Part shown: positions 2,347-64,000 of the stretch, piece by piece
Numbering within the stretch: the stretch's first letter is position 1
Layout of the letters: each line of letters starts with the position of its first letter
Source: Bilabrum cf. latius
Taxonomy: Eukaryota
Direction: 5' to 3'
NCBI GenBank assembly: GCA_965178125.1
Contig: OZ237766.1
Location: 682,001 to 746,000 of the forward strand
DNA: 64,000 bases
The notes under the pieces: model-generated
What the model was told of the DNA's origin: nothing
Database searches by the model: none
What the model saw: only the letters and a program-made list of their open reading frames with translations
Position numbers and translations under genes: made by a program

Positions 2347-4324
2347 TCAGTCCATCCAGGGTGCCCAGTAGCCCCCTGTCTCGTTGACTTTGGCCAAAGC
2401 GCCGGGCAGGTCGGCGGAGCCCCCCGCATCTGACTGGAAGCAGTGCCGGCCCAGGGCATGGAACCTTCGCTGGAGCCTGTCTGCCACCTCCGGCAGCTGT
2501 TCCTTCAGATCCACGTATTCCGCGGGATCAGCCGTCACGTTGAAGAGGCAGCCTAGGGGACACCCGGGGGCGTCGAAGGGCAGCTTCGCGGTGCTGTTGG
2601 GGTAGTTGGGGCTCCACCAGTACCCGGAGCCGGATTGTGTTCCCTGGACCCACTTCATATCCCCCTGAATGAACGCGCCGTCGAACAGGCCCGTCGCTCC
2701 CTGGGTCTGGGTCAGCCCCCCTTCCTCCTCCCCTGCTGCTGCTGCTGCTGCTGCTGGTGCTGCTGGTGGTGGTTCATCGGGGTCCATGGGCATCCCCCCC
2801 GCCGTGCTCCTGGACCATACAGTGTAGTGCCCCGTGCGCTGGGAGGGGCCCGAGGGGGCCGCGAGTGAGCTCTCGTTGCCTGGCCTGCACGCCCCCGTGG
2901 CGGCATCGAAGTTGCGGTAGGACAGCAGCAGCTCCCTCCGAGGGGACTCTGTTCCCTGGGTCATGGACCCCCACATGTCTAGGGAAGTGGAAGGGGGGAG
3001 ACCCCGCGCCGTGGTGTTGTCCCCGCAATAGCCAGGGGTGCCCCCGCCTCTCTGGCACAGCGTGCGGTACCAGTCAGACACGTGGATCGTACCGTCGTAC
3101 GCAGTGCCCCTGGCGTCCTACGGCACGGCCCCGCCGGTCACCATGGCCACCGTCCTCACTCCGCCTTCGAAATCGTTCCCTTTGCCCCCCCTCAACGGAT
3201 AGTTGTTCGCGTTCGACGGGCCGCCCACCAGCGACGGGCCGCCGTTGTCGCTGCCGAACACCAGCAGAGTGTCTTCCCACAGACCCAGGGACTGCGCGGC
3301 GCCGGTGATGTTCCGCAAGGTCTCGTCCACGGCGCTGGCCATCCCGCTGTAGACCCTCCTGCCCTGGACCCAGTCCTCGGGGTACTGGTCCACCAGCCGG
3401 TCCGGGGCCTCGACTGGCTCGTGGGTGTCCTGCAGGGCCAGGTAGACGAAGAGCTTGTTCCGGTTTGCGGGGAGGCGGCCCTGGGCGAGGGCCTGGAGGG
3501 CACTCGTCACGCTCTGGACGGCGAGCGCAGCGTTCCAGGTTCCGTTGGCGCCGCGCGCGGGCGCGGTGGAGTTGTAGATGTCCGTGTGTCGCTGCGTGAT
3601 CTGCGTGTAGTGCTGCTCTCCCCCAGATAGGTAGCCCAGGCTCTGGTGGAAGCCCCTGCCGACCGGGGTGTAGTTCTGATGCGCGAGGCCCTCGTGCCAT
3701 TTCTGCACCAGGGGGGCGGGGATGGGGGGGGGATGGGGCGGGTGGGCGGGCGGGATGATGGAGAAGTATCCAAGAAGCTCAAAGTGGTTATCAAGATATA
3801 AAATATGGCGTTTGGAGTGACCAAGGTCGCATATTATGCTATGCTCACCATGACCTGCATGGAGTGGTACCCGAGCCCCGACATTTTGTGAGCGAGCGTG
3901 GTCATGCCCGGGTGCATGGCAGGGAGCGTCCATCCCCACTTGGCGTTGTTGAACTGGTTCACGAACGGAGGCAGACGTCCTGTTAGACTGCGCTATTAGC
4001 GGGTAGACAAACCACCCGATGCGCCAGTCAATCGAGAAGGGGGATCGGCAACAAGGTTGTTGGGTCCCGTGCCACATCCGGCCAAGCTCACAGTGAGGCC
4101 CGTGTGGGGCTGCAGAACTAATATGTATAGTGACGGTTGAGACGAATGCCATTCTTGAGCAAGTCATTCATGAACGGTGTCTTAGTTTCCGGATTGGTCC
4201 AGCCTATGTTGTAGTGACCCTAATCGTCGCTCAGGCACATGATAATGACTTTCGGGGGGGCTTGGGCCCATGCAGAACACACCAATGTGGCTGCAGCTAG
4301 AACAGACACATGCAGTCTCAGCAT
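2347..4324 (-). CDS. Arylsulfatase B-like secreted sulfatase; exons 4324-4092, 3987-3849, 3702-2347
   Basis: Signal peptide, then MCLSDD*GHYNIG, HYTY*FCSPTRASLLTGR (CxPxR formylglycine motif), KWH, SDNGG, NNYPLRGGK, FEGGVR and HVSDWY. Introns are 3988-4091 (GTGAGC...GCTAAT...CAG) and 3703-3848. In-frame TAGs at 4220-4222, 4118-4120 and 3118-3120; ends TGA. Confidence 0.9.
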
Positions 4325-4455
4325 GGCACGGCACAGTGGCTGCATATTCGGCGATCTTGGACTTCGGTTCGCATCGAACCCGGAACGTTCAGCAAGACAA
4401 ATAGACTAGTGCAGGCATCACCCAACGGAGTTCAAGTGCTAAAGTGCTTGATTGC

Positions 4456-6225
4456 ATGCCCCAAAATCATGTGGCCGTAGTGGTGCTAGGCGATTTGGGT
4501 CGATCGCCTCGCATGCAGTACCACTGCCTGTCGCTCGCCCGCGCTGGTGCCAACGTTTCGTTCATCGGGTACGACGAGGAGAAATGCACGCAGGAACTAG
4601 AAAGCAGCCCACGAATCACCAAGCACGGCCTATCAACGCCGTTTAATGGCTGCAGTCGCAAGCTATTCCTGCTCTGGGCGCCATTCAAGGTCCTCTTTCA
4701 GATTTTGCAGCTGCTATGGGTGTTGCTCTTCGCCATCAAGGCCCCCTCGGCTATTTTGGTGTAGAATCCGCCGTCAATACCGACCATGTTTGTAGCCTTT
4801 ATTGCCAGCAGGCTCCGCGGCGCTCGTTTCGTCATCGACTGGCACAACTTCGGCTACACTATCCTGCAGCAGACGGCCGGCGGAGGGCGAGCCAGCCACC
4901 CGCTGGTGCAGGCCGCCCGCGTGTACGAGCGTGTCCTGGGGCAGACCGCGGATGGCGGCCTCTGCGTGACGCGGGCCATGCAGGGCTGGCTGCGTGACGA
5001 GTGGGGCGTGTCCGCGCATGTGCTCCACGACAAGCCCCCGGCCTTCTTCCGGCCCCTTGGGGTGGACGAGGCCCACGAGCTGTTCCTTCGGCTGCAGAGG
5101 GAGGGAACGTTCGGTGCGAAAAGCTTCGAGGCGCTAGTGGAGCAGGGGGGGCCTGGGACAGGCGATAGCAAGGACCAGGGGGTGGAAAAGGGGCGACTCG
5201 ATCGAATGGAGGAGGAGGAGGACGAGGAAGACGATGGGGAGGTGACCATGTTCACGACATCATCTTCATCTTCATCTTCTTCATCGCAGGTGGAGGCCCC
5301 CCATTGGCGGCAGGACCGGCCGGCCCTCATGGTGAGCGGCACCAGCTGGACCCCGGACGAGGACTTTGGGCTGCTGCTTGAGGCCCTCGTGCTGTACGAC
5401 AGGGCGGCGGTGGAGTCGAGGGGCGCAGGGGGGGAGCCAGGGAACAGCGATGCAGGGGGTGGGGAACAGGGGCAATAGGAGGAGGATGCACAGAGAGACG
5501 GTTAGAAGCAGAGCAGGAGACGCAGGCGGGGCAGCAAGGACCTTAGCAAGGACCTTAGCAAGGGCAATGCAAAGAACAAGGCCAGTGGCAAGGGCAGACG
5601 GCTCCCCCGGCTGGTAGTGGTTGTTACCGGCAAGGGACCGCAGAAGGCCATGTACGAGCAGAAGATCCGGAATCAGAAGTGGACGCACGTGCAGGTCCGC
5701 ACGGCCTGGCTGGCCTCTGCAGACTACCCCCGGCTGCTTGGCTCCGCAGATCTCGGGGTCAGCCTGCACACCAGCAGCAGCGGGCTTGACCTGCCCATGA
5801 AGGTGGTGGACATGTTCGGGGCCGGGCTGCCGGTACTGGCGGCCCGGTTTGCGTGCGTGGAGGAGCTGGTGCGGGAGGGCGAGAACGGGGGTTTGTTCGA
5901 GGACGCCGATGGGCTGGCGGGGCATCTCGTGCGCCTGCTGGACGGGTGGGGCGGAGGGGGTGGTGTGACGAGTGATGGGGTGACGAGTGGGGGTCCGCTG
6001 GACCGACTCCGTGCTGCGGTGCTGCGGGCCAGGGAACAAGATGGCTGGGAGGAGAACTGGGTGAGCAACGCGAGGCCGGTGCTGCTGCCGGGGGGGATGA
6101 GGGGGGGAGGGGAGCACGACGACGAGTCCATCGTGGATGGGCCGGGTGAAGGGGAGGAGGCAGGGAGTGGAGCAGGGGAGACACCCGGCCGTGCACAGGG
6201 AAGAAGAAAGAAAAAGGATGAGTGA
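4456..6225 (+). CDS. ALG1: Chitobiosyldiphosphodolichol beta-mannosyltransferase ALG1
   Basis: Motifs VVVLGDLGRSPRMQYH, ILV*NPPSIPT, IDWHNFGY, SGTSWTPDEDF, VTGKGP and HTSSSGLDLPMKVVDMFG. One continuous frame across TAGs at 4762, 5476 and 5503; ends TGA. Confidence 0.95.
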
Positions 6226-6368
6226 ACGATACATGGCGCGTTGGCGTGTGGGCTGTTGCGCGACCCACGGAGAGTCAAGTCACGATAGCAAGCAAGCACC
6301 ACTGACACCGCTGCTCTACACTGCGATGCTGATTGGTCTAACTCCCGGCACTCGTCACTCATTACTCG

Positions 6369-7160
6369 TCACGCGCTATCCACGGGCGCCAGGCAGGGCA
6401 CCCCAGTGGCACCTGCTAGGCTGATGTGCCCGTCTCCCGAATTGTACGCCCAGTCAGGGAGGAATGACTCGGAGCCGGATTGAGCACCGTTCGATGCTCC
6501 TGCCGCTTTTGCCCACAATGACGACGACAGCGACCGCGACTCGGAGCTGAAATCTGTGGGCGCGGCGTGGTCGCAGGGCCGCAGCACGACCGGCTCCTTG
6601 GTGCCTCCTGGGGCCGCCGCGGCGATGCAGAGGGCGGGGGCCAGCTGGCTCTGGAGCTTGAACTCGTCGGGGTAGTTTCCCTTGATTTGCTTGAACTGGG
6701 TGGCGGTGGGGCACGCCGATCGTGGGGATGCTCGGTTCGCGGCAGAGGTTGCGTTGGGCTTGGTGCACTCTGCGAAGGAGAGGCCGGTCCCGGCCGACGG
6801 CGAGCACGAACTGACTGCGACGCACTGATTGTTGCCAATATTTAGGATCTGTCCGGGTGCCACCGTTGCGTTGTCGAACTGCCAAGTGTAGAGCAGCGAA
6901 CCGAACCCGTGGAAGCAAGCATCTACTCCGACTGCAGCTACCTAAGACGAAGTTTCTGCGCGAATAGACCACGAGATTGGATATAATACTACTATTTTAA
7001 AAGTGTTGTTCCGTTTGCATGCAATTGTACTCGAGATTAATGAAGTTCAAGATCTAGGAAGTGTAGTTGCAGTTGGCAGCTCACCATCCAATAAATGTCC
7101 TTTCGTGGCCACAATGACGCACGAACACACAACAACTAGAATACGAGATACCCGCTCCAT
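6369..7160 (-). CDS. Small secreted Cys-containing protein, ricin-B lectin-like; exons 7160-7085 and 6955-6369
   Basis: Signal-peptide exon MERVSRILVVVCSCVIVATKG, a phase-compatible GTGAGC...CGCAG intron (6956-7084) and a TAG at 6942-6944. Segments such as NQCVAV, ALCIAA and VVLRPCD resemble beta-trefoil repeats. Ends TGA. Confidence 0.6.
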
Positions 7161-12674: not shown

Positions 12675-15600
12675 ATGAACTTCGTTTGTTTGTTGCAGGT
12701 TCTGGTCGCTTTGTGTACGCTGCAAGCCAGGGACGCGGCGGCGCGCGGCAGCACTCGTGGTAGCTCAATATCGCTACAGCCCGGACAGCTCCTTGCAAGA
12801 TCTGCGAATGGGCCCATGAAACTGTATGCACTCGAACCAAAGTACCATGCGACCGCATGGTGGCCTCGCTTTGTGCAAGCTGCGGAGATGCTAAAGATTG
12901 GTCGTAGTATCGAAGCCGAGCACCTGTTTCGAGGCGCTCTGCAGCAGGGAGGCATCCCAGACGACGCTGCGGCGTTTGCACACGGCATGCTCGCATCATT
13001 ATTAGCGTCGAAGTTGCAGCTGGAGGAGGCCGCGACGCAGTGGCACCTGTCCGCATCACACTGGCGCGCGGCAGGCCCGGCGCGCTTCCACTCGATGCAG
13101 AGAGACAGAGGCGGTCCCGCCAGCGGTGCAGCGGCACAGCGCAACCGCCAGCATCACATAATTGCATCGGATTCAAGCGATAACCCCCCTCCCGCTCGGC
13201 CCAGGCAGCTTGCAGCGGACCCGGCCCGTCACTCGATGGCCGCTGCCGCGCTTGCGCAGGAGATGCTGGGCAGGCAGGCCGAGGCCGGGGCGGCGCTGCG
13301 GGAGGCGACGGACGAAGAAGATTCGGAGCCGGAATTCGGATCGGGTTGGGAACGGGGGTCCTCTTCCCCCTCCAGCGCGCTTGCACTGCACTGCAGGGCC
13401 GGGATGTCCCTGCGCGATGCGGACTTGCAGGCCTTCGCCTCCTGGGGTAGGCGGGCGATCGAGGCGGCGGGGGCGGCGGGTGGGTTCCGGGCGAGGAGCA
13501 GGGAGGGGGCTGGTGAGGGTGCATCGCATGCAGGTGCGGGTGGGAGGTATCCTGGTGTGACGAGTGGTCCCAGTCCTGGGTCACGGCTTGGGCGTGGGCG
13601 TGGGCGTGGGCGTGGGCGGGGCAGGAGCCATCACGGGAGGGGGAGGGGTGCGAAGATGCCGGTGACATTGGAGGAGGGTCCATTGCATCCTTTGGGAAAC
13701 AGGGGTGCGATCGATGGCGTGACGAGTGAGGAGGAACGCGCCGGTAGTGTGACGAGCGGGGATGCCATCAGCAGCAACTCCAAATCGACCCCAAGCACGA
13801 GTAAAAGACAAGAACTACGACAAGGACAAGCAGAGGAAGCAGCCCCAGTCTGCGAGGAGGACGGTCGCGGGCGCATCGCGGTGGTGGAGTGCCTGGCCTC
13901 TCGCGTGAGGCATCGGTTCAGGGCTCCGATCGATCTGATCCCGTGGGTCATGCGCAGCGTGGCGCTGCGTGGGATGCAGAGGCGCCCCCCAGCGGGAGCG
14001 TTGTTCCCTGGGGGCATGCGGGCCGCGGAGGAGCTGGCAGTGGCTGGGGTAGCGAGCGGGCTGGGGGGCGGGGCGGCGACCGTGGGAACACATAGCGGTG
14101 TGACGAGTGATGGCGGCGGCGCATCGCATGGTTATGACGTTGACGGCGGTACGGGTGCACTGCATGATAGTGGGAGGGATCCGATGGCGGCGGGCCGTCT
14201 CGATGGCGGCTGGTGGTGGGGCGGGCCGCATGCGGGTGCATCGCACGGTGGAGCAGGTGCATCGCACGGCACTGAAGTGAACGCGACTCAGCTGTGGTAG
14301 GAATCAGTGCACGCGTCCAGGTCGCATTGGACGTCTTTGGCCTCCTGCGTGCTAGCTGTGGAGAGGGGGGAGTGGGAGCGGGGGCTGTGGGCTCTGCACA
14401 TGCGGCTGGGGTAGTCCCTGCAGGACGTGGGGCTGCCCCTGCAGGCGGGGAGGCACTTTGGGAAGGTGCCTCTCGCGGCCAGGATTGCGGATCACTCGTC
14501 ACACGGTGGTGGTCACTCGTCACACCGGGAGGAGGCGTCCAGGCTCAGCGCGTGGACGCAGATCCACGCAGCCCTATCCCTGCCCCTCGTCCATTCGTCA
14601 CACCGTGCGATCCAGGAGGCCCGCTCCAGCCTGGTCCGCCGACTGACGAGTGCACTGGGCGAGGGGACCCGCATGCACGACGTGCACCGCGCGCCTGACC
14701 TGTATGCGACCTTCTTCGCCCTTGGGCACGCAGGCCCCTCTAGCTCGAGGCGGGTGATGGAGGACGCGGGGAGGCTGCTGGGGCGGGCCCACAGCCCGGT
14801 GCTGGGGTGGGAGGCGCCCTGGGTCAGGGTGGTCAAAGACGCGGTGGAAGGGGGAGGGGTGGCCAAAGGGACGGCCGCATTGGAGCCAGAGTCAGGAGTC
14901 GGAGGGATCGGTGGGAAGCATGCACCGCAGGGCAGTGCAGGCAGCGCGGGCCACGGAGCCAACGAATGGAAGGCACTGCGGTGGCTCTACGGGCTGTCTC
15001 TTAGACCCAGTGTGACGAATGGCGGGCAATCAGCCGCCTCCCTGGCCCGCCGCCCGCTGCCCCGCGAGGCCAGGCGGGCCCTCGGGAGGTGGATGGGGGC
15101 GCAGGTGCTGGCGCCGGCGGGGGCGAACGGCACGGCGGGAGCACACACGGGAATGGGCGGGATCGGTTCCGCGGGACCAACACTCTCCGTGCCCCACACC
15201 CCGCCCCCGCCCCTCCGTGTGGGGGTGCTCTCGACCCAGCTGCGGGACGGGCCGGAGGGGCACTTCCTGCGGCGGCTGGTCCAGAGGCTGGCGGTTGCAA
15301 CCGGTGGAGAGGTTGCAACTGGTGGCGGGTTGGAGTGCAGGTTGGGCAGCCGGGTGGCGGCGGCGAGGGAGGGCAGGAGGGCGGGCGTGTCCTGCCAATG
15401 GGTCAGGAAGGGGGGGAGGGAGGGGAGCAGTGGTGGTGGGGGCTTGCAGCATGCAAGGCAAAGCTCACAATCCCCTGGACTTGGTGTTCCCCCGGAGATC
15501 CAGGTGGTGCTGGTGCTGCCCCGACCAACCGGTGACGCGGTCACGAGGGCGGCCATGGGGGCCGCGCACACGGTGCTGCGCCTGTACGACCACTCGTCAC

Positions 15601-17873
15601 ACAAAGGACACTCGTCACACCGAGTTTGGACCCTGGAGGCCAGCCGGGAGGCCGTGGCCCGGGAACAGCTGGACGTGCTCGTGGTCTCTGACGGCGGCTT
15701 GGACGCCCGGATCTACGCTCTCCTGCACGCCCGGATGGCCCCGGTGCAGGTGCTGCTTCTCGCGGCGCAGTCCTCGCTCAGCCTTACTTCCGGTTTGCCC
15801 CACTCCGTGGACTACGTGGCGAGCGGGGACGGGCTGGCGGGTCTCGGCTGGGACGGGGCAGTGTCTGAGCAGAGCCTGCGGGTGGGTCCCCTGGGTCTCC
15901 TAGCCGCGCCACTTTAGCCACCCTCTGCTGGGGAGCACTGGGAGGCCGTGTCAGGCGCCGGTCTGCTGGACGGAAGGAGGTACGTGCTTGTTCCCCGGCC
16001 TCTGATGGCGCTGCACCCTGCCATGGACGAGGCCATCGGGGCGATCTTGAGGGTGGCCAAAGAGGATCCAACGGAGGTTGGTCAAACTCGCGGCACAGCA
16101 CAAGGCGTGGGCAGCTCTGGCAGCAACTAGGACAAGACGCAGGCAGACCTCGTGACGAGTGGCAAGCTCCATCCACCGGTGGACTCCCAGCCTCATCAAC
16201 CCCTTCCAACCAGCAGTCCGACTCCTTCCCCTCCTCTCCCCCCGATCGAGCTGCTTGCGATGGGGGAACAAGGTCAGGGGGCCTGGCTCTCGCGGGCCAT
16301 CGCGCGGCTGCGGCACTCGCCACACGTGGGTGCGGAACTCGCAAGGAACGTTCGTTTCCTGGAGCAGGGCCCGAGGCGCCGCTTCTGGGCGCTGCTTCGG
16401 GCGGCTGACGTGGTGCTCGACTCGTTCCCTGCGGGCGGGGGCGCATCGGTGCTTGAGGCGTATCTCCTGGGGGTGCCCGTGGTGAGCTGTCCCCGGTGCG
16501 GGGGCCCCGGGGGTCAGCGGGGTCATGGGTCCCCTGGGGGTGGGTCTGGGAGCCGGAGCGTGGGTCGCGCGCTGGCAATCGCGCTGGACAGGAGACTGCA
16601 AGGAGTGTTGCTGTCAGGGAACAATGGAGGTAGTGTGACGAGTGATGGGCTGGACCTGGAGAGGGCGGCGAGTGCTGTGCAGCGGGCCGTGCAAGGTGCC
16701 AGGCCGGCAGTGCGCGAGAACACGGTGAATGCAGGGGCAGGGAAGAGGCACGAGGTGCAGGTGCAGGAGGAGGAGGAGGTGCAGGGACATGGGAAGGAGA
16801 AGCAGAAGGGAGCTTACATCAAGAAGGATAAGGGTGGCAGCGAAGGTTCCAGCAGCAAGAACGCAAGTGGTGGGGTCGATGCCCTCGATGGTGGACAGCA
16901 GGTGGCTGCACTGCCGGCAGCAGATGGGGGAAGTAGCCCAGGGCACGCAGAGGCTCGCGCTGCAGTGCAGTGCGCCCGCGCCCTCGGCCCCGGCGCCCTG
17001 CAGAGCCACCTGGTTGCGACCAACATAAGCGGTGTGACGAGTGCGGTCCGCGCTCTCCTGCGCAGGCCGGGTCCGTCCCGGTTGGCTGGCTCTGGTGCGG
17101 GCGCGCCAGGAGTCGGTGGGTCCGGGTCCGATTGGGGGAGGGCTGGGCGTATGCAGGATCCGCCCCTGCGCGTATGCTTGCGGGCGGTGCTGCGGTGCCT
17201 TGGGCCCCCCTTGCTGGTGTGGGGCGGGGACTCGCAGCTGGGCCACACGAAGAGGAAGGGGGGGGCGAGGCAATCGGAGGACAGGGGTCCGTGGGTTGGG
17301 GTGCCTTGCGCCCGGGCGGCAAGGGCGATGGTGGCTGGGTCCTCCACCTCTGGACCGGGGGCTGATGCGGGGGATATTACCGGTGCCGCTGGTGGCTTGC
17401 TAGAAAGCGGCGATGATGCGGAGGTGCAGGTGCAGGCGCAGGTGCAGGTGCAGGTGCAGGAGCAGGAGCTGGATGAGTGGGTGGAGCTGCTGGCCCGTCT
17501 GGGGAAGGGGTGGAGGGGTGCGCGGGCGGGTCTGGAGCACTTGCCACGCTTCCAAGAGGCGGTGGCGGCGCTTGAGAAGAAGAAAAGTGCCAGTGGCAGT
17601 GCCAGTGCAAATGGGGGTGGTGCCGGGTCGAAGTCAGTCCAAAGGAGCAAGAGACGAAAGAAGAGCGTCACTGTTTCCTCGGGGGAGAAAGCGTCGGGAC
17701 GAAGAAGAAATACTGGCAATTTTGCGGATGCAAAAGATGGTGCTGGTGGCAGTAAAGCCCACTATGCTGCGCACGCAGGCGAGGGCGAGAGGCAATTGGA
17801 GCCGAGCAGCACGAGGAAATCGGCGGCGGAGGATCGCGGTCCACACCGAAGGCGAAGGCGCCGCGGGAGCTAA
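12675..17873 (+). CDS. TPR + GT41 (O-GlcNAc transferase/SPINDLY-like) glycosyltransferase with signal peptide and long low-complexity inserts (about 1730 aa)
   Basis: Motifs LRVGVLS, QLDVLVVSDGGLD...ARMAPVQV...TSGLPHSVDY and ADVVLDSFPAGGGASVLEAYLLGVPVV. One frame across TAGs at 14298, 14412, 15915 and 16128; ends TAA. Confidence 0.8.
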
Positions 17874-18049: not shown

Positions 18050-21000
18050 ATGGAATCTCGTTCCGAATCAAATGCGGTCCCCATGGCGACTAGAGATGAC
18101 TCTATCAAGTTCTATCTGCAGACGCCGGTGGAAGTGCTCGAGTCGAAGCTGGAGGCGGCAGAGATGAGCCTGGTCCAGGACGCAATGGCAGCAACGCCAC
18201 CTCACCGAGGATCAGGGCTTGAATCGCTCGCATTTGCTAGCAGCTGCAGCTCGGACGATCGTGAGACCTCCTTACACAGCCGAACAGAATCGTGCCGCGT
18301 TATCGAATGTCGTAGAAGGACAGCCCGCCGGGCCGGAACGAGTTGCACCACCTTGAATCGACGGTCGAGATGCGGCGAGGTATACTCACGTTTCGCAGCC
18401 CAATTTTGCATACCAATCGATATCGCAGTATTGAATTATTATGATGTAACGTGTTCGAGTCGTTCCACAACCGAGAGCCACGCATCGACGCTGGAATTGG
18501 CAAGTGCAGCCTCGTCTTGCGCAAGCGAGCAGGAGCGCGCATCGGAAGCGAACAGCCCACCGGTGCTACAGCTGGCCTCCCCGATGAGCGTGCGATCCAT
18601 GTCATCCATTTCCTCCGCGTCGCGCTCTCCCAACTGCGGAACAGCTTCTCGAGGCGGACGCTCGGCCGGCAGCCCGCCAGCCGTGGCCAGTGGATCCCCC
18701 GTGGGGACAGGTGACACCCCGGGGCCCAGGCGAGGGATTCGGTCTCCACCACTGCACCCGCGGGGAAGGATCGGATCATCCGCCGCCGTGCACGGGCAGG
18801 GGCACACCCGAGGCAGGACAGCTGCCGCCGGCGCCCCACGGCTGCCACGCAGCCGCTCCCTCTCCCTGGCCTCCGTGTCCTCCCTATGCTCGGACGGTGT
18901 GACGAGTGAACATTCCCACTCGTCACACCATCATGGCACACCAGACACGACCGCGCTGTTCCTCGTGCAGCGGGCCGCGCTATTGCAGCTCCGGGTCCGC
19001 ACCCCGGCCCCCGCCCCTGCCGAGGGGCTTCGGCTGCGGGCGGCGCACGGGCGGGCGCTGGGGCTGCTTGCCGAGCTCCAGCGCAGGGAGGGCCGGAGGC
19101 GGGCGCTGGGGAACAGGGCCGCCATCGCGCTGCGGGGGGCGGCCGCGGGGCTGCAGCAGCGGGTGGTTGCAACCGCCCCTGGGCAGGGCGGGTTCGAGTG
19201 GGCGGACCAGCGGCCCTGGGTGGAGCGGGAGGCCGCGGTGCTGCGGTCGCTGGTGGCCGCCCTGCATGCATCGCACGGTGGTGCGCCCGGGGTGGACGCC
19301 AGCAACGAGGTCCTTGGCCACGAGCAGCGGCTCCTGCTCGTCACACCTCCCCTGCACCCCGCTGACTCGCTCCTGTACGCCCGAGACCTCGTCAGGCACG
19401 CGGAGCTGTGCAGGGCCCCGGGGCAGTCGGACAACGACTCGGCCAGGCACGCGGGGAGGAGATCACTGGCGCAGGCAGCCGCGGTGGCGGCCGCGGTGCT
19501 GGAGTCGCTGTGCCCTGGGGTCGTGGCGGAGGCGTCCGGGGTCGAACCCGGGAGCGAGGGCGACGTGGCGCGGGCGCTGTGCGATTCATTTTCGCTCTGC
19601 CGACGGGATGCCGACGCGCAGGAGAAGGAGGGTGAGGCACGGCTCCGATCGACAGCCGCCTCCGGTCATCATCGTCACGACGAGGAGCAGCAGCAGGTCC
19701 AGCAGCCGCTGGGTGAGGCACAGCTCCGATCGGCACAGCAGGCCGCGTTGTGTCTCGCCGACGCGCTGCTGGAGCTGGCCTGCGATTACGGGGCCAGGAG
19801 GGCTGCGAGGGCTGCCCGGCGGGGAACAACGGGAGTGTAGGTCGTCGAGGCGGTTGCAACCGCAAGTACCGGTGCTGGTGCTTGTGCCGGGGGTGTTAGC
19901 GGAACCGGGCCCCAGCAGCCGTGGCGCCGCGCCGAGTCGTTGCTCAGGGGGGTGCTCCGCAAGGAGGCCGCCAAGCTGCTGGGGCACGTCGCGGGGGGTC
20001 TGCCCGCGACTGGTGTGACGAGTGGTGGGGCCGGTGGGGCTGGTGGTGCGGCTGGACTGCGGCTGCAGGAGCGGCAGCAGCGGGCGACTGCCGCGTGCCC
20101 CGCCGTGGGGTCATTCGAGGGGATGGCCAGGGCGGGGACGCCCCTCCGGCTGCTCGACTCGTTCCTGGTCCTGTGCGGCGGGGGTGCATCGCACTGCAGC
20201 GGCACCTCGGAAGCGGAGGTGCATTTGGCCGCGAGGGCGGCGGAGGACTCGGAGCTGAAAGGCATGCTGCTGCGGGCGGGGCGCGTGGCAGCCCGGGGTG
20301 CGGCGCAGCTGGGGGCCATGCCCCCGCACTGGGGTCTGGTGCTGACCCCTGAGGGGCGTGACGAGTGCGGGGCGTTGTCCCGGTCTCTGTTCTTGGCTCG
20401 CACGGTGCTGCGCGCGGCGGGGCGCGGGCACGCGCAGGGTGGGTCCGTGGCTGGTGTGACGAGCGCGTGGGCCCACACGGGCCGCGCGCGTGCCGTTGTG
20501 GAGGCGACCCGGAGGGGCGAGGAGGAGGCGTGGGCGGCGTTCTGCGCGGGTGCATCGCACGGTGGTGCAGGGCACGGTCAGGTGCACGTGCAGGTGGTGG
20601 AGCTGGACAGAGACTCGGAGGAGGGTGGGAGCGATGGGGCTGACGTGGTGGATGACGTGGATGACGTGGTGGCACCCGCATCCCCGGACCTCCGGGCGCT
20701 CCCGAACAGCCCAGTGCAGGAGCAGGAGCAGGGTCAGAAGGAGGAGGAGGAAAGGGGAGCTGAACCCGCCGGCCGCATCGACGTGGGGAGCTGCGCGGAC
20801 GCAGTCACAGCCAAAGGCACGGACTGTGTGGCCCGCTCGCTCGCGGCTGCCTTTGAGGGGGAGGCACGGGGTGCATCGCACGGTGGCGCGCAGGGCATGG
20901 CGTGCCGGTCGCAGCGCAGGCGCAGTCCGCCGGCCTCTTCACCCGGGTCCGTCAAAGAGGCTCTGCCGGCCCCCGCCGCATCCGCATCCGCATCCGCGTC

Positions 21001-21805
21001 CACCGGTGGATTTGGATTGCCCCCCCGCGGGATCCTCCGGCGCCGCCGCTCCGACTCGTCGGCGTGCTCAGAGACTGGGTGTGGGTCCGAGGGCACGCCC
21101 CTGCTGGCGTGCGCGGCGCCGTCCACCTGGAGCGGAACCTCGGTGCGCGGCGCCGGGTCACGGTCCGTGTGCAGCGACCCCTCGTCCTCCTCCTCCGGGC
21201 CCCGGTCGCCCCCCCCGCGTGGATGCTCCCTGCCGCGGTCCCTTTCCGGCTCCGGGTCTTGCGCATCCAGCGTGGATGGGTCCTTCGGCGGCGAGGCAGG
21301 TGTGGGCTCGGGCATGGGGCTGGGTGTGGGGTCTCGCCCCCGGGGGGGAAGTAGGGTGCGGTTCTGTCCGCCCGCTGTCCTGCTGGTGCGCGGGCGGGCG
21401 GACGGGGGCGAGGGCGAGGGAGGGGAGGCGCTTAGCCCGAGTGTGAGCGTGCGGGAGGGGCGCCGCGGCGATGAGGACTCGGCCTGCCAGTGGGGTGGGT
21501 TTGGTGTGACGAGTGAGGACCGGGAGGGGGGTTCCTCGTCGTCGTCGGAGGGGGAGGGGGCTGGTGGCCTGTCGGTGGCCAGTGCGCTGGAGGAGGCCAG
21601 GGCAGAGCGGTGTGCCGAGGCCGTGGCGGAGTTGTAGCGTGTGCTTTTGGAGGCGAGGAATAGGGCTAGGCAGAAGGAGATGGCTGGCGAGGGGTTCGGC
21701 GAGCACGGCGGCTCGGCCGTGGCTGCTGGTGCGCTCGCTGAGGCAGGCTTGAGCGTCCAAGGAGGGAACGAAGAGGCCCGGGAGATGGGAAGGGCCGGTC
21801 TATGA
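18050..21805 (+). CDS. Hypothetical Ala/Gly/Ser-rich protein
   Basis: ORFs 17927..19840 and 19940..21637 share a frame, joined by TAGs at 19838 and 21635; ends TGA at 21803-21805. A small intron near 18380-18450 is possible. Confidence 0.6.
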
Positions 21806-40975: not shown

Positions 40976-43747
40976 TCCCGCGACACATCGTGGCAGTGGG
41001 GTCAGTTGCACTGGCACGCCGGACTCAGGGCATACGGGAAACACCCGCCCCTGGGAACACCGAACGAACAGGAGAGCTCTCGCCCGCACAAACCTACGCC
41101 TAGCAGATATACTGGCCGCACCGAGCTCCATGGAGCCGAGCACTCGTCCCTGGACCTAGACCGGCAGGGTGCTGTTGCTGCTGACAAGGCCACCGGCAGG
41201 GGCAGGGGCAGGGACAAGACCCGCCCGCCACCAGCAGGACATGCCCATCACGCTGCCAAGGCACCCAGTGCTGGTGAAAGGCCACTTAACGCTTCACTCG
41301 CTAGACAGCCGCCTGTTCGCGGTAGGACAGCGGGGAATCGGGGTGGAGTGGCTGAGACAAAAGGGATGGGGAGGGGTCCTCCCCACCATGGGGGGGGCAG
41401 GGGCACTGCCAGGCCCATTGCATCACATGCCGCAGCCATGCCAAGGGAACAGGAGACGATGCAGGTGCACCTACAACAGTAGCACAGGCCAGTGCAGCAT
41501 CAACAGTAGCACAGGCCAGTGCACCTACAACAGTAGCACAGGCCAGTGCAGCATCAACAGTAGCACAGGCCAGTGCAGCATCAGCAGGCCGGGCATCCAC
41601 GGCTAGACCAGGGGCATGCGGGGCGAGAGACATGGCAGGGCCCTGCCTCAAATGGGCTCGCTTCTAGCGGTGTGACGAGTGTATCGGAGCTGGCCAGCAC
41701 GGTCGCCAGCGTGCAGCAGGAAGCGGTTGCAACCATCGAGAAGGCCCGTAGGCTGCTTGACAGGAGCGAGGGGTCCGAGCATGGGGCGCAGCAGAGGGTG
41801 ATGGGTGGCAGGAATGGATTGGGACAAGAGTAGGGACGGGGACGGGGACATGGATCTGGCGTTGGGTATAGTCCGCTGGAATCAGGTGCTACAGGGTAGT
41901 ATGCCGGTGCTGCACCTGACATTGGTGCTGATGCTGGTGCTGGTGCTGGTGCTGGTGCTGGTGCTGGTGCTGGTGCTGGTGCTGGTGCTGGTGCTGGTGC
42001 TGGTGCTGGTGCTGGTGCTGGTGCTGGTGCTGGTGCTAGCCGAGGTGGAAGTGGCGCATGGACGACGGCTGGAGTTCGGTCCTTCGTGAACGGAGATGCG
42101 GGATTGATGGGCGCGAGCAATGTGACGAGTGGATCTCGATCGGGATCGATCCTGCGGCTGCCCCCTGCCTCCCCGCGGGGCAGGATGCAAGGCAATTGGA
42201 GCGACTCGGGAGTATGCGTGGCCCCAGCCGAAGGAAGTGATGATGCTGCCGGACAAGCGCCCGGGGGGACACACGTGCTTGCTAAGTTGCGGTCGAACGG
42301 CGGCAGTCCACCGGTGGACTGGTGGGGCATAGATTCTCCACCCGCTGCTGCTGCTGCTGGAGCTGCACCCCCCCTTCAGCATCGGTCGAGCGTCGGGGCC
42401 GGAGGCAGTGCGGATGGTGGCAGTGCAATGCAGGAGGGGTCGAGCGTCGGGGCCGGAGGCAGTGCGGATGGTGGCAGTGCAATGCAGGAAGGGTCAGATG
42501 GTGGCAGTGCAATGCGGGAGGGATTGAATGGTCAAGCGCGTGTGAAGCACCACCCTGCAGTGCACCTGTCCAGCAGGCCCGCCTCTCCCCCGCCGCAGCC
42601 CATCCGACTCAGCTAGGTCCCACTTGGCCTGGACTTCCTGCGGAGAACGGGTCACGACAGGGGCGAGAGACTAGGCCGGGCAGAAGGGCACAACTCAGGC
42701 AATAGTCGCGATGCACGAAAACCGAACAGGGCGGCAGCAGCGCCAGGCTGGGAGGTGCAGTACCATGCGGAGCCAAGGTCCGATGGGCAGCAGTGGTAGG
42801 CTGGGGCCCTCCTGGATCTGGCCATGGATCACTCGTCACACCTAGATACACCACAACAGGCAGCAGCCGGCCGCAGTGCAGCATCATCGCCCTCCCCGTT
42901 CGACTCCCCCGTGCCAGTTCCAGACCGTGTGACGAGTGCATCGGGAGGGGCATAGCTGCTGCCTGCTCCCCGCGGCCCAGGCACTGCATCGGCCCCAGCC
43001 ACTGGTCCTGCGGTGGCCTCTGCGTAGGCGCATGGCCAGGCGCATGGACGTGAAGTTCTGAGGTATGCCAGCCCGTCGGCGGGTGGGAGCCGCGCTGCCA
43101 GTGGGGTGGTGGTGCTGTCGGAGCCGTTGCGCGCGATCTCCAGTAGCAGCGGCAGCGGGGCTATGAGCGGGAATGATGGTACATAGAAGACCGGGAATGG
43201 CGACAGGTCTCTATCCCAAGGGGGTGCCTTCACCGGCGAGCAGACAGAGCTGCAGGAGACCGTGGCGGCCATGGTGCGCGGGTGCGACGCGGTGTACCTG
43301 GATATGGGTGCAGCGCATGGTGGTGCGGGGGCCCGGTACCGCGTTCGTCTATTCGTGCTGCCAGACATGAGCGCCGTGGCGTGGGTGGGCAAACCGGAAC
43401 TGGTGGGCGGTGATCTTGGTGCATCGCACGGTGGTGCGCATGGGGGGCGAGCGCTCGAGGCCAGTAGTCACCATGGGGCTAGCAAGAGCTTGGATGGGAG
43501 CGGGAACGAAAGCAGACAGGAGGACGAAGCCGTTGGGGCGAGCTATCCCCTGTGGCAGGTGGGCATCAATGACATCGAAGGCGTGGACCCGCGAGGGTGG
43601 GAACAGCGAGGTGGAGCAGGTGACGCTTGGCCCCTGCAGATCAGGAGCGGCTTGTACTCTGCCCCGCTTCGGTTTGAGCTCGGGTCGGAAGGGGAGAGGC
43701 GCCGGTGGACAAGCGGGCTAGAGGTGCTGCGGAAGATTTCATTGTGA
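39995..43747 (+). CDS. 1250-aa low-complexity protein with C-terminal PH-like domain
   Basis: One frame with 14 in-frame TAGs and no TAA/TGA. The C-terminal RVRLFVLPDMSAVAW...LRFELGSEGERRRWTSGLEVL is PH-like. Confidence 0.7.
40906..40975 (+). repeat. (GCTCCT)n coding hexamer run (Ala-Pro); similar runs at 41925-42037 (GGTGCT), 51328-51397 (CAGACC) and 62998-63052 (CCCTTG)
   Basis: Perfect hexanucleotide arrays visible in the sequence, all frame-preserving. Confidence 0.9.
41468..41587 (+). repeat. 27-bp coding repeat x4.5 containing CAA CAG TAG (QQQ)
   Basis: Unit (CACCTA/CAGCAT)CAACAGTAGCACAGGCCAGTG. Confidence 0.9.
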
Positions 43748-59496: not shown

Positions 59497-59693
59497 CTGT
59501 ACCCGTACTGAGCAAAGTAGACCAGGCCAGGCCAGGCCAGAAACAGAAGCAGAAGCAGTGGCACGGGGTGTCTTGGACGGCCTGGAATGCCACAGCTGTC
59601 GGCCAAATATACGCTTAAGAGCGTCTGTCGCAATGATGATGGTTGATTACATATCCGGATCGTTGCAATTAACCTAGGCTCAGTTCTATGTCC

Positions 59694-61115
59694 TCATGTA
59701 CTACCACCACTGGCTGCCTCAGCTGCCTCGCTGTCCCCTCCCTTACCCTCCGCTTGCGCGCACCTCCGCACATGCCGGATCACCTCCGCGTGCACCTCTC
59801 TTGGACCAGCTGAGGCCACCACTCCCAGCGAGGTGGGCAGCCGCCTCCCGTGCGAGAAATCAAGCTCCCTCCCCTCCCCGTCCGTCACGCAGCCGCCGGC
59901 GGCCTGCAGCACGGCAGCCCCGGGCGCGTGGTCCCACACCTTCTCCCTGTATCCCGCCTGAGGGAAGCGCAGGTACAGCTGGGCCTGCCCCCGGGCCAGC
60001 AGCCCGTACTTGGCCATCGAGTCGATCCGGACGGGGGCCTGCTCCTCAGCCGGTGGGAGGCCAAGTGAGGTTGCGACCGCCTCGCTGAGCCCGTGTGACG
60101 AGTGCCCCGACTCGAAGGACTCGACCAGTCGGAATGCGGAGAGAGGGCACGGGCTCGGGCTCGGGCTGGAGCTGGAGGGGAGGGGGGCGCAGGACTGGCC
60201 GCCGGGGAGCATCGACACCAGGTCATCCGAGTGCGTGCTGTCACCCTTCAAGTTGATTGTGCCCGCCGCAGCCAAGCCGTCCTCCTATTCCTTTTCCTCT
60301 TCGTCACCCCTGCCGGCCGTGGAGGCGCGCTTCCTCTCGGAGGCAGGCGCCACTGGCACTGGCACTGGCACCGGGAGCAGGGAGCTGCCCACCTGGCTGG
60401 CCTCGAGAGTTGAGGCGATAGGGAACTGTGCGCACTGAGGGGTGCCACTAGCAGTGGCCAAGCTGCCTACAAACAGCGTCCCGTTGCCCTCGCCACCGCC
60501 GGCTGTGTGCTCGCCGTGGTCGAACCCGAGGTTCGGACACGCTATCACCCCTGCGATTGCCCGAGCCCCGTCCACAAACCCCAGGCCAATAGAGTACTGA
60601 TGATCTTTGCCGCGAAGGAATCCTTTCGTTCCATCAATAGGATCTAAGCAGAAATATCTTCCCGCGTACTCTTCCGAAGCGGTGGGATCAAATGTGCCAG
60701 CATCGAGAGCCTCACACACAGACACTTTGTCGACGGCCTTCGCATCAAGATATGTGCACCCCGCAGCCCCTTGCTTGATTGCATCGATCACAGCAGAGCA
60801 AACCGATCCATTCTCCCGAACCGCAGAAGAATCCTCCTCGCCAATGACAGGCAGAGCCGCATGCCCGCCTTCGAGCAACTCGGGATCCCGCTTGAGCAAC
60901 ATAACTATAAGAGCCTGCACAGCAAGGTCTCCAATCGTAACGGGTGACAGATCATCTTTCGACAGACTAAACCCTGCACCAGCAGAGCCTGCGGTCGCAG
61001 GTTGAAGCCTACGAGTGATGGTTGCAGCTCGCAGAACGGCTCTAGAAGCCGCTCGAATGTAGGCCATGTGTAAGTGATCTGCACTTGAATCTGATTCGTC
61101 GGCAGCTGCAGCCAT
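59694..61115 (-). CDS. 3'(2'),5'-bisphosphate nucleotidase (HAL2/MET22/SAL1 family)
   Basis: Motifs KDDLSPVTIGD, GEEDS, LDPIDGTKGFLRG, GVIACPNL, ESFESGHSSH, RIDSMAKY and YREKVWDHAPG. TAG at 60285; ends TGA. The start could be slightly upstream. Confidence 0.92.
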
Positions 61116-61392
61116 GTGGGCTCGCAGTATGCCCCGATCGGGTAGATCTAGAGTTGCACACATCTCACTCTTCTTCTTCTTGGAAGTCGCACGCACGGTA
61201 GGTGCAGCCGAGTGCGGTGTACCCTACAAGCAACTCATATAGACTGTGCTCTTACACTCACAGACGGAAGCATGTTTGCAGAAAGTGCGCCAGGGTATCG
61301 CAGGCAGGCCTGCGAATCAAGCATTGATGGCGACGTGCTGTATTCGACAGCCCCTCAGGCTGTTTTGCGTTGTTTTGTCCACCAGCGGCGGC

Positions 61393-64000
61393 TTACCCGG
61401 TCCCCTGCTCCGCCAGTCTCGCTCGGATGTGCTGCACCGTGTCAGCGAACTCCTCGCTCGTCACACCCGATACCTTGGCCGCGTCCTTCGCTGGGATGAC
61501 GGTCCCCCCACTCCCTGCGACCCCTCCCTCCCCCTGGGCCTGCTCCCCACCTCGTGACCCCGCCCCCATCCGGTGCACCCCTGCAACCCCCCCGCCTCGT
61601 GACCCCGCCCCCATCCGGTGCACCCCTGCAACCCCCCCGCCGCGTGACCCCGCCCCCATCCGGTGCACCCCTGCAACCCCCCTGACATCGTCTGATGACA
61701 CGCTCATATCCCCCCGAGCCCAGTCGCTCCCCAGGCTCCTGTTTCCCTCCCCCGCCATGGGGTCACCCCCGCCCCCCCTGCTCCCCCCCGCCAGCCCCAT
61801 GAGCCCCCTCATCTCAAGCAGGTCGCTCACGCTATACAGGCTCTGGTTTCCCTCCCCCGCCATGGGGTCATTCGGGTTTGTGCCGGGCACGTGGTGCATG
61901 GCGCTGCTGTCGCCGAGCCCCGCCCGCAGTCGCTCCATGTCCGCCACGCTAGCAGGTCGGTGTGCATGTGCAGGCTGCGAGTCGGACTCCCCTGACCCTT
62001 GCTCGAGAACAGCGCTGCTGATCCGGCCCCGGCCACTGCCGCCGTGCGGATCCTCCGAGACGGATGACGACGAGGAGGAGGTGATGTTGCCAGGCGCCAT
62101 ATCACTGCCGTGCAGTGCACCAATTCCCAACCCCACAGCTCCACGGGCCCCTGGTGTCCCCGGGACGCTCACGCTGCCTGCAGATCTAGCCCCCAGCCCC
62201 CCGTGCACGGGGCCCGCCCCCGCTTGTGCCCCGACCTCAGCCCCTGCCCCCCGCTGCTGCCCCTGCCCGTACATGCTGCCCAGCGACTGCGCCCCGATGG
62301 ACAGCGCGCCCAGCCCCATGAAACCCCCTGCTGGACTACTCCCCCCCGGACTCTGGCTATGCTCCTGCACGTGCCCCTAGCCTTGATGCAGGCGCAGGGT
62401 GTGCTGGGGTGCCCCCGGGGGTGTATCGCTGGGCATGGTCATCATCTGCTGCCTGTGCTCGTCCTTGATGTCCCGCTGATGCTGCATCATTTCAATGCTG
62501 TTCTGCATCTGCTGTAGTGCGAGCATGCGCTGCATGTGCAGTGCACGGTGGTGGTGCAGCTGCTGCTCCCTGTAGGCCTCCGCAGGGCCGGTCATCCCAT
62601 GCACGCCTGCATACCCCTAACCCCAGCCGGGGGACGATGCGGGGTGCCCCGGGGGGTACGAGGGGGCGCCAAAGGCCCCTTGGGCGGCCGCCGACAGACT
62701 CTTCAGCCCCTCATGCCTCGAGCTGTGCGAGCTGGCGGTGCTGCGGTTGGACGAGACATGCTGGCTTGCCGGGCCAGTGTTTGGCAGGACGCCGCCCATG
62801 CGATCCGGTCGGCGACCTGAATCATGGTACGACTGCCCGGGGCCCCGCCCGTGGAGTCCTGGAGCAGCAGGTGGCAGGCTGGGCGGCACCGGATGCAGAC
62901 TGAACTCGGAGCCCTGTGAGTGTGACGAGTGTGCCGCCGGAGCGACGGGTGACTCGGGCCTGGAGCCGACTGCCACCCCATATCCCATGCCATGGGCCCC
63001 CTTGCCCTTGCCCTTGCCCTTGCCCTTGCCCTTGCCCTTGCCTTTGCCTTTGCCCGCTCTCCCCCTGCTTGACCCAGGCCCTGCCCTCGGGGCCCTCCCC
63101 TGCAGCGTGGCATCCGCGGCCCAGTCAGACACAACAGTGGGTCCGCCCAGGCCCAAATACTCCCGAAGGTGCGGGGGGACTGCAGGGCCCTGCTGGCCTG
63201 CCTCTGCTCCGCTTGGGCTGGAGCCATCCCCCCCCCTGCCTGCACCCTCGGCAGGGGGGGGCAGCACGGGGATGGCAGAGCACACGAACATCTGCGCCTG
63301 CCCGTCGCTTGCCCGCAGCAGGGACATGGACACCAGCGAGGACACGGTCCCTCGCCTGAACTTGCACAGCTTGCGGAAGCAGTGCACCATCGGAGTGCCG
63401 CACCCGTCCTGCCCCACGGTGCCAGCCAGCGGCCTGGACTGCGCCGCCACCATCATGGCAGCCCTGGCGTCTTCGCACGACTCGCAACTGTGGCGGGAGG
63501 CGTCCTCGGCCGATCCCTTTCCTCTTCCATTGCCTTTCCCCTTCCCCTTTCCTGTACCTCTACTTCGATCACTGCCCGCACTGATGCTTCCCTGTCCTGC
63601 CTCCGCTCCGTCACCACCGCCATCACCACCGCCATCACCACCGCCATCGCCACCGCCACCCCCATTTACCCCCCTGCCTTCCTGCTTGCCCTGGTGAATG
63701 AGGGAGGACACCACGTCGAACATGCTGTCCAGCTCGCTCTGGGGGGTCAGCGAGAACACGCTAGAGGCGCGGAGCTGGTCTGCCGTGTACCCCGTGAGCG
63801 CCCTGAACAGGGCGTTCGTGCGGCGGAAGGAGCCGTCCGGGGCTGCCACCGCCATGGCCACGGGCGCCAGTTCGAACACGCAGGGCAGCGGCAGGGGGGC
63901 GCCGGGCAGCGGCAGCAGAGCGCCGGGGGCAGGCACGGGGGTGGGTCGCACGGGGACTGGGGCGGTGTAAGAAGGGACTCCCCCTTGGGAAGGCAAGCCG
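61393..64000 (-). CDS. PAS-domain protein, probable bHLH-PAS/bZIP-PAS transcription factor; 5' end is outside the window
   Basis: Contains VFELAPVAMAVAAPDGSFRRTNALFRALTGYTADQLRASSVFSLT...FDVVSSLI and a later VSMSLLR...MFVCS. TAGs at 62617 and 62377; ends TAA. Confidence 0.75.
61553..61682 (-). repeat. 45-bp coding repeat x3 (GVAGVHRMGAGSRGG)
   Basis: Units start at about 61553, 61598 and 61643. Confidence 0.85.

Follow-up and report, generated by a model that had tools for sequence, protein, structure and literature searches.

A sharply bounded 12-13 bp DNA word written through gene bodies of a eukaryotic genome, possibly read by a DNA-binding protein

When the same short sequence recurs dozens of times in coding DNA, is it kept there by the peptides it encodes, by the DNA itself, or by a mutational process that needs no function? 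We addressed this question for a word with the core GTGACGAG/CTCGTCAC in a 64-kb stretch of Bilabrum cf. latius contig OZ237766.1 (assembly GCA_965178125.1, positions 682,001 to 746,000), hereafter the window, to which all window counts and coordinates refer. A first-pass annotation had counted about 41 cores by hand where it expected 2-3. We found 42, of which 25 lie on the plus and 17 on the minus strand, against a mean of 2.42 (standard deviation 1.64, maximum 9) in 100 dinucleotide-preserving shuffles, none of which reached 42. All 41 coordinates listed earlier proved real, except that 14496 and 14517 should read 14495 and 14516, and one plus-strand core at 4994 had been missed. For the longer form GGTGTGACGAGTG, 43 sites with at most two mismatches (17 exact, 17 one-off, 9 two-off) were found against 2.00 expected (largest value 9). 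The logo of these 43 sites has 12 nearly invariant positions, GTGTGACGAGTG, which end abruptly both left and right; G precedes them at 27 of the 43 sites, and the flanks are at background level on either side. The full word is (G)GTGTGACGAGTG, 12-13 base pairs (bp) long, sharply bounded and not palindromic.

Counted against the 12-mer GTGTGACGAGTG, the classes with zero, one, two and three mismatches held 25, 17, 5 and 38 copies, compared with 0, 0.35, 5.25 and 57.8 in shuffles. The one-off copies are members of the family, since 17 were seen where chance gives 0.35, while the two-mismatch class shows no excess over shuffles, so that the family is a tight one. Decayed copies are missing, because by our own reasoning a steady birth of copies followed by neutral decay would fill the classes about equally. 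Among the one-off 12-mers, 12 of 17 changes fall at the two T positions near the word ends and are mostly T to C; they are synonymous in the frame read as GVTS and go towards preferred codons.

Placement relative to genes was evaluated for 46 sites (the 43 GGTGTGACGAGTG sites and three further cores) using 19 long open reading frames (ORFs), predicted from sequence and picked by length, codon score or homology. Forty sites lie inside this ORF set and six outside. The 40 ORF sites are read as x-V-T-x (25, sense, mostly GVTS or SVTS), H-S-x-x (10, antisense, mostly HSSH), x-D-E (3), L-V-T (1) and T-H-H (1), whereas the frame containing a stop (GTG TGA) is not used at all. The readings GVTS, HSSH, LVT and CDE named by the first-pass annotation all occur, but very unevenly; and its picture of unrelated genes hit in both orientations stands as to the strands, whereas the frames are not arbitrary, two of them taking 35 of the 40 sites, and the choice of genes is strongly selective. 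In 23 ORFs comprising 10,155 codons, composition predicts 0.32 GVTS and 0.07 HSSH; the counts are 17 and 8. The codons are exactly GGT GTG ACG AGT in 12 of 17 GVTS (probability from codon usage 0.0017), the other five differing only at third codon positions, and exactly CAC TCG TCA CAC in seven of eight HSSH (0.0094). GGT makes up 0.109 of glycine codons and AGT 0.061 of serine codons, so the main frame uses rare codons. Since the sites almost always use identical, partly rare codons, the constraint is on DNA, as had been proposed earlier, and the peptides GVTS and HSSH follow from the DNA word, not the reverse. The codon-preserving shuffle suggested by the first-pass annotation left the enrichment in place: 12 ORFs (18,039 bases) hold 33 cores and 20 exact 12-mers, compared with 4.94 +/- 2.10 cores (maximum 12) and 0.41 12-mers (maximum 3) when synonymous codons were permuted with the protein kept (300 runs), and with 0.96 cores (maximum 5) and 0.007 12-mers when whole codons were permuted in the same ORFs. 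A single ORF, 17915-19837, contains readings of the word from either strand.

It is highly improbable that what is selected is a short linear protein motif (G-V-T-S or H-S-S-H) serving protein function. Such a motif would account for both peptides being far above composition expectation and for 12 of the 17 one-off changes falling at synonymous positions of the GVTS frame; however, selection on a peptide would leave its codons varied, the two strands of a single word yield peptides that are unrelated to each other, and copies also stand outside ORFs, namely 6 of 46 in the window and 24 of 60 in metagenome contigs (there, outside ORFs of at least 150 codons). For annotation this carries a warning: recurrent GVTS and HSSH in such proteomes are footprints of DNA, not protein motifs.

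The 46 sites are given below; mismatches are counted against the 13-mer GGTGTGACGAGTG, sense and antisense are relative to the ORF, and a line giving only orientation and peptide refers to the ORF named last.

3501..3513, minus: 2 mismatches; sense in sulfatase ORF 3121-4167 (minus), QSVTSAL, gap-free on QYITDAL of sulfatase 6b0k
4991..5003, plus: 2 mismatches; sense in ALG1 N-terminal ORF, WLRDEWG, gap-free conserved block
5962..5974, plus: exact; sense in ALG1 C-terminal ORF, GGVTSDG, loop insertion versus closest homologues
5977..5989, plus: 1 mismatch; ALG1 C-terminal, DGVTSGG, tandem partner 15 bp from the 5962 copy
6349..6361, minus: 2 mismatches; 3' of ALG1 ORF, outside ORF set
6363..6375, minus: 8-mer core only (more than 2 mismatches); partner 14 bp from the 6349 copy
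13554..13566, plus: exact; sense in ORF 12525-14297 (plus), PGVTSGP
13716..13728, plus: 1 mismatch; sense, DGVTSEE
13746..13758, plus: 2 mismatches; sense, GSVTSGD
14097..14109, plus: exact; sense, SGVTSDG
14493..14505, minus: 1 mismatch; antisense in ORF 14415-15914 (plus), DHSSHGG
14514..14526, minus: exact; antisense, GHSSHRE, partner 21 bp away
14592..14604, minus: 1 mismatch, core GTGACGAA; antisense, VHSSHRA
15009..15021, plus: 2 mismatches; sense, PSVTNGG
15591..15603, minus: 1 mismatch; antisense, DHSSHKG, loop differs in close relative P0184
15609..15621, minus: exact; antisense, GHSSHRV, partner 18 bp away, loop differs in P0184
16149..16161, plus: 8-mer core only; sense in ORF 16131-17870 (plus), DLVTSGK
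16314..16326, minus: 2 mismatches; antisense, RHSPHVG
16632..16644, plus: 1 mismatch; sense, GSVTSDG
17031..17043, plus: exact; sense, SGVTSAV
18896..18908, plus: exact; sense in ORF 17915-19837 (plus), DGVTSEH, left arm of perfect 13-bp inverted pair
18917..18929, minus: exact; antisense, SHSSHHH, right arm, 8 nucleotides (nt) from left arm
19335..19347, minus: 2 mismatches; antisense, LLLVTPP
20012..20024, plus: exact; sense in ORF 19841-21634 (plus), TGVTSGG
20355..20367, plus: 1 mismatch; sense, other frame, EGRDECG
20453..20465, plus: 1 mismatch; sense, AGVTSAW
21503..21515, plus: exact; sense, FGVTSED
24186..24198, minus: 1 mismatch; sense in ORF 24043-24993 (minus), GSVTSEG
24513..24525, minus: 1 mismatch; sense, GSVTSAV
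24600..24612, minus: 1 mismatch; sense, PGVTSDA
33028..33040, plus: exact; sense in PX-domain ORF 32989-34347 (plus), TGVTSEV
33139..33151, plus: exact; sense, DGVTSEG
33295..33307, plus: 1 mismatch; sense, AGVTSGG
33946..33958, plus: exact; sense, TGVTSAV
34909..34921, minus: 2 mismatches; antisense in ORF 34447-35469 (plus), EHSSPND
35257..35269, plus: exact; sense, GGVTSAA
38385..38397, minus: exact; sense in GH95-like single-exon gene 36058-39534 (minus), EGVTSAV, in 14-residue segment absent from 3 of 3 homologues
38627..38639, minus: 8-mer core only; sense in GH95-like gene, GPCDEPQ on conserved Cys column
40690..40702, minus: 1 mismatch, GTGATGAG; antisense in ORF 40430-41479 (plus), TATHHTN
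41669..41681, plus: exact; outside ORF set
42119..42131, plus: 2 mismatches; outside ORF set
42830..42842, minus: exact; outside ORF set
42926..42938, plus: 1 mismatch; outside ORF set, inverted, 97 bp from the 42830 copy
60092..60104, plus: 1 mismatch (exact 12-mer); antisense in bisphosphate nucleotidase ORF 59697-60284 (minus), GHSSHGL, gap-free, conserved
61455..61467, minus: 1 mismatch; sense in ORF 61396-62376 (minus), SGVTSEE
62919..62931, plus: 1 mismatch; antisense in ORF 62620-63999 (minus), AHSSHSQ

Comparison with homologues shows that copies arose in two ways, in variable loops and by substitution on conserved peptides. The first-pass annotation had left it to orthologues to tell substitution from insertion, and the answer is both: loop copies look inserted, whereas copies on conserved peptides are gap-free. 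In the GH95-like gene, the exact copy lies inside the 14-residue segment that all three aligned homologues lack. The ALG1 tandem pair, GVTSDGVTS, stands in a glycine-rich loop from which the two closest homologues lack 8-9 residues, and the pair HSSHKGHSSH of a TPR-glycosyltransferase gene stands in a loop whose length differs between homologues, one having a short and another a long version. In P0184, the closest relative available, with 63% identity across 134 residues that take in the loop, this loop is replaced by a different, longer sequence without a copy; for P0127, a member of the same cluster, identity across the conserved part is 81%. On conserved ground, an exact 12-mer encodes the GHSSH of a 3'(2'),5'-bisphosphate nucleotidase, gap-free against the three solved homologues shown, with GHSSH in yeast HAL2 (1k9y) and AHSLH in plant SAL1 at the same place. 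A one-off 12-mer encodes SVTS of the sulfatase, likewise gap-free, where sulfatases have YITD or MYST, and another encodes LRDEWG of ALG1 in a block without gaps in six of six aligned ALG1 sequences. Since these copies are gap-free on conserved peptides, which pure insertion cannot produce, the word arises by base substitution as well.

These alignments bear directly on the main rival, a function-free mutational process in which a fixed 12-nt (four-codon) oligonucleotide is inserted repeatedly, for example by templated repair, or duplicated locally, and survives where the frame is open. Short templated insertion fits the loops and the unconserved positions: the invariant unit measures exactly 12 nt and ends abruptly, all three loop cases look inserted, the close relative has no copies at the orthologous loop, tight pairs occur (and arrays with 14-21 bp periods in metagenome contigs), and the stop frame is absent among the 40 ORF sites. 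We nevertheless rate it as rather unlikely, because insertion cannot have made the gap-free copies on conserved peptides, neither target duplications nor a tail of decayed copies were found, the five open frames are used very unevenly (25, 10, 3, 1, 1), and density is about 4-fold higher in ORFs, the opposite of what neutral insertion would leave.

Orientation within ORFs was 28 sense versus 12 antisense at the 40 sites. This excess, although one sense frame is closed by a stop, is the sole basis for a signal at the RNA level, in which an RNA-binding protein or a small RNA would bind the sense word in mRNA, the antisense copies being incidental. Such a signal is improbable given that ORF 14415-15914 carries five antisense and one sense copies, that metagenome contigs split into 19 sense and 17 antisense, and that only one pair is capable of forming a hairpin; a search of the window against Rfam gave 0 matches at gathering score. 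A reading as intron or splice site (the word starts with GT) was rejected, the frames being open, both orientations occurring in one ORF, and the sequence after the word being random.

Along the window, 36 of the 42 cores fall in the approximately 60% covered by coding-like ORFs, at about 4 times the density outside. Overall density is about 0.7 per kb and very patchy: 17,166 bp (42929-60095) hold no copy despite GC-rich ORFs, where about 11 would be expected at mean density. Six neighbour distances are 35 bp or less, comprising five direct pairs and one perfect inverted pair (18896-18929), with spacers unrelated to one another; in the 0-50 bp distance bin, 6 pairs were found versus 2.2 expected. 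Orientations did not run together, either among all neighbours (24 of 41 alike, permutation P = 0.19) or with tight pairs collapsed (17 of 34, P = 0.66). The interval 350-450 bp held 13 pairs against about 4.3, the best bin reaching P = 0.002 uncorrected for 30 bins and resting partly on non-independent tandem pairs; we do not claim the spacing periodicity that the first-pass annotation had wanted examined. Two arrangements stand out. At 18896-18929, a perfect 13-bp inverted repeat with an 8-nt spacer is read in its ORF as GVTSEHSHSSH, the sole such hairpin in the window. At 5962-6375, two tandem pairs, mutually inverted and about 385 bp apart, bracket the last approximately 80 ALG1 codons and the 3' flank; this is not a miniature inverted-repeat transposable element, because what the pairs enclose is real ALG1 sequence.

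Remnants or binding sites of DNA transposons (solo terminal repeats, subterminal transposase sites or excision footprints) are very improbable. What speaks for them is the length of 13 bp, that of CACTA-type terminal repeats, in which 12-bp transposase sites also occur in both orientations, together with the copies about 350-450 bp apart, an excess weakened by the tandem pairs. The first-pass annotation had held that the flanks are unrelated and that the word is no transposon, and both claims are borne out: self-BLAST of the window revealed no similarity beyond the word at any copy and no related bodies or flanks, and target-site duplications were at chance level (k = 3, 1 versus 0.8; k = 4, 0 versus 0.16). 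The word is moreover non-palindromic, an inverted-repeat search of the window returned nothing apart from the word itself, and copies sit on conserved peptides. None of the 21 rows reported by Tandem Repeats Finder for the window is built on the word.

The word recurs in other uncultured eukaryotes and is conserved in the lineage. Metagenomes were scanned for the 13-mer followed by a second core within 30 bases, which yielded 69 loci. Many of these are unrelated satellites or heptamer repeats in which the scan pattern itself forces the core to be present, and they were set aside (for example L002, L003, L021, L036, L042, L049, L045/48/56, L005/50 and repeats of GTGACGA that look bacterial); only contigs with dispersed copies were kept. 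In one metagenome, 14 contigs (85,190 bp, GC 55-61%) carry dispersed copies on both strands with unrelated flanks as well as tandem clusters of the word with periods of 14-21 bp, and a few contigs of two other metagenomes behave alike. After removal of all multi-copy clusters to which their selection might have been due, the 14 contigs still contained 11 solo exact 12-mers versus 0.01 expected. Their long ORFs encode eukaryotic proteins in long exons (coronin-like, IMPDH, PI3K-related kinase, GH59, PQ-loop). Between the window and these contigs there was no shared DNA and no orthologous overlap, only a single weak WD40 protein match. Across 20 metagenome loci, two of which are duplicates, in a second sample, of two others, 60 copies were placed; the 36 inside ORFs of at least 150 codons are read as GVTS (15), LVT (8), HSSH (5), TRH (4) and CDE (4), without strand bias. 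An assembly, adapter or polishing artefact is extremely unlikely: frames are open through 40 sites, sequencing runs from a second study and organism label contain 69% of the words sampled from 13001-22000, and the word stands in independently assembled metagenome contigs. The word is neither a transposon nor a satellite, a structured RNA family or an artefact.

Satellite units containing the 12-13-mer had periods of 11 bp (L002/L003/L021/L058), 9-13 bp (L042/L049), 30 bp (L036), 34 bp (L045/L048/L056) and 31 bp (L005/L050). We treated these copies as coincidental, arising from a GTGA-rich repeat style and the scan pattern, yet it is odd that so many unit types contain the word. Five viral-contig matches were of the same unrelated repeat kinds and were rejected.

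Companion words accompany the main one. The palindromic (C)GGTTGCAACC(G) is over-represented in the window, where it occurs at five loci, 15293-15320 (twice), 19165-19176, 19852-19863, 24982-24993 and 41725-41736, and is read V-A-T in every translated ORF; the companion CGGTTGCAACCG is a palindrome. In the 14 metagenome contigs, clusters removed, GGTTGCAACC was found 13 times versus 0.08 expected and CCAGGGAACA 13 times versus 0.16. In the window CCAGGGAACA(A) is over-represented, standing at 14 places on both strands and in several frames (for example 5438, 6030, 14003, 16615, 34948 and 38103); its 13 metagenome copies are spread over 8 of the 14 contigs. A further word, GGTGCATCGCACGGTGG, is present in 4 exact copies and in about 15 carrying at most three mismatches (for example 13518, 14235, 14256, 19265, 20183, 20549, 20870 and 43418), is read G-A-S-H-G-G mostly in genes that carry the main word, and is rare in the metagenome contigs.

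What, then, keeps the word in place? In our analysis it is about an even call that it is a DNA word read by protein, recognised by a putative sequence-specific DNA-binding factor and kept by selection or by transmission bias. This proposal starts from what we demonstrate here, i.e. enrichment, DNA nature, two origins, a tight family, short-range pairing and presence in other genomes. In it, (G)GTGTGACGAGTG would serve this eukaryotic lineage as a recognition word at the level of DNA, favoured in double-stranded form whichever strand it stands on, with T at letters 2 and 11 of the 12-mer tolerating C. It would accumulate in gene bodies where the protein bears it, by substitution on compatible codons and in lineage-specific loop segments, and the G/S-V-T-S or H-S-S-H translation would be a by-product. 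The putative factor might act through selection for many sites, as in chromosome organisation, pairing or repair, or else through biased transmission of the word, of the kind known for bacterial uptake sequences.

Several observations weigh against this proposal. The two favoured frames take 35 of the 40 ORF sites and sense exceeds antisense by 28 to 12, a frame and sense bias that could reflect a constraint at the RNA or peptide level beyond DNA alone. The position of the word is not conserved in the single orthologous loop compared (P0184), and there is no excess of near-words with 2-3 mismatches, some of which stepwise substitution might be expected to leave. We know of no drive of the uptake-sequence type in eukaryotes. 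The main frame uses rare codons, whereas the frames of uptake signal sequences (USS) go with preferred codons (PMC2817400, in part). The basis, finally, is 64 kb of one genome.

Among known systems, HIP1 is a cyanobacterial 8-bp palindrome, GCGATCGC, spread genome-wide in coding DNA and of debated function; the window word differs from it in being 12-13 bp long, non-palindromic and in a eukaryotic host, while its companion CGGTTGCAACCG is palindromic. CACTA (En/Spm) elements have subterminal motifs and terminal repeats that are likewise 12-13 bp, non-palindromic, in both orientations and often in close pairs, whereas the window word has no element body, target duplications or related flanks and lies on conserved host peptides. 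The core of hypervariable minisatellites and the human 13-mer hotspot motif are short cores at dispersed, otherwise unrelated loci, and recombination hotspot motifs tend to be lost by conversion rather than gained. The word resembles the minisatellite core in that it heads tandem arrays with different spacers in metagenome contigs; unlike minisatellites, it is mostly solitary or paired, true arrays being confined to those contigs. Nematode pairing-centre motifs are concentrated in chromosome-end regions and are not known to be written through coding sequence, as the window word is. In Caenorhabditis elegans these motifs, the targets of ZIM-1/2/3 and HIM-8, are clustered 11-12 bp words that recruit dedicated zinc-finger proteins (PMC11605055, in part), and the window word is like them in length, short-range clustering and patchy distribution.

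A close parallel exists in the uptake sequences of naturally competent bacteria. Like the USS of Pasteurellaceae and the DNA uptake sequences (DUS) of Neisseriaceae, which have 9-12 letters, the window word is short, present on both strands and vastly over-represented (PMC2817400, in part). The same source describes a doubling in the frequency of the peptides that uptake sequences encode, together with biased frames and a tendency to lie in genes and at residues of low conservation; the window word too stands in preferred frames and poorly conserved loops, with a few copies on conserved peptides. With these frames and loops, and with some gap-free copies made by substitution, the earlier likening to uptake sequences and HIP1 was apt (PMC2817400, in part). 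Unlike uptake sequences, the window word is found in a eukaryote, where no uptake machinery is known or expected. Literature searches, which did not extend to supplements, found neither the word nor its companions described as motifs, all occurrences being parts of primers or of unrelated sequences, and topic searches with the same limit found no eukaryotic counterpart.

We offer only as a doubtful extension that these are a nuclear eukaryotic counterpart of words of the uptake-sequence or HIP1 type, with a small vocabulary (GGTGTGACGAGTG, the palindrome CGGTTGCAACCG and CCAGGGAACAA) common to species. Each member would have a putative dedicated binder and owe its spread through gene bodies to biased transmission or repair, or else to selection favouring dense binding, with an effect strong enough to rewrite codons and to add residues to otherwise conserved proteins. 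There is a real chance that the mechanism is new, genome-wide words read by proteins being already known as a class. From bacteria, genome-wide words that shape proteins are known, and DNA uptake provides a concrete drive for some. If the signature of such words is borne by a eukaryotic nuclear genome and by further uncultured eukaryotes, some eukaryotes would have an undescribed sequence-specific process acting across gene bodies. What makes up this signature is the recurrence of the same rare codons, a bias in reading frame, a tightly knit family, copies placed on conserved peptides and pairs at short distance. The word would offer a precise 12-13 bp bait for the putative factor, and the proposal predicts gains by substitution and a transmission bias, both of which can be tested.

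The window, with a GC content of about 63%, is nuclear eukaryotic DNA, because its encoded proteins include PX, ALG1, WDR5-like and GH95-like proteins, the last with choanoflagellate relatives. Pfam matches comprise a PX domain, a GH95 catalytic domain, a sulfatase, two ALG1-type mannosyltransferase halves, a PheRS core fragment, a WDR5-like propeller and a protein of the inositol-phosphatase fold; no tRNA genes were found in the window. The GH95-like ORF 36058-39534 (minus strand, 1,158 codons) aligns end to end with homologues of 1,024-1,092 residues and for this reason is a single-exon gene; other window genes are split. Among the nearest relatives found for the GH95-like protein, at 46-47% identity, are two proteins from choanoflagellate transcriptomes. 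The closest named relatives of ALG1 are from green algae, and the best named relatives of the WD40 protein are from diatoms and an oomycete. The mismatch between the affinities of the GH95-like protein and ALG1 would point either to a poorly sampled taxon or to transfer of the GH95-like gene. Five consecutive plus-strand ORFs of 500-641 codons fill 12525-21634; they are not due to chance, because by our arithmetic about 2.4% stops per codon are expected at this composition. The first three have their matches among long proteins whose N-terminus is TPR-like and whose C-terminus resembles glycosyltransferases, and the best Protein Atlas match of ORF 17915-19837 reached only 0.75.

Other repeats of the window were also recorded. 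A 45-bp tandem array at 26162-27606 (33.7 copies, 342-bp higher-order period) lies in a strongly coding-like ORF of 606 codons and may encode a repetitive protein. Two tandem arrays, 29346-29816 (24-bp unit, 19.6 copies) and 30819-31069 (40-bp unit, 6.3 copies), lie in a stretch of lower GC. Finally, a dispersed 323-bp repeat occurs at 10523-10845 and, inverted, at 30439-30761 (94.7% identical), with a partial copy at 44926-45022; it overlaps an ORF with a weak ankyrin match and probably represents a mobile element or a recent duplication without connection to the word.

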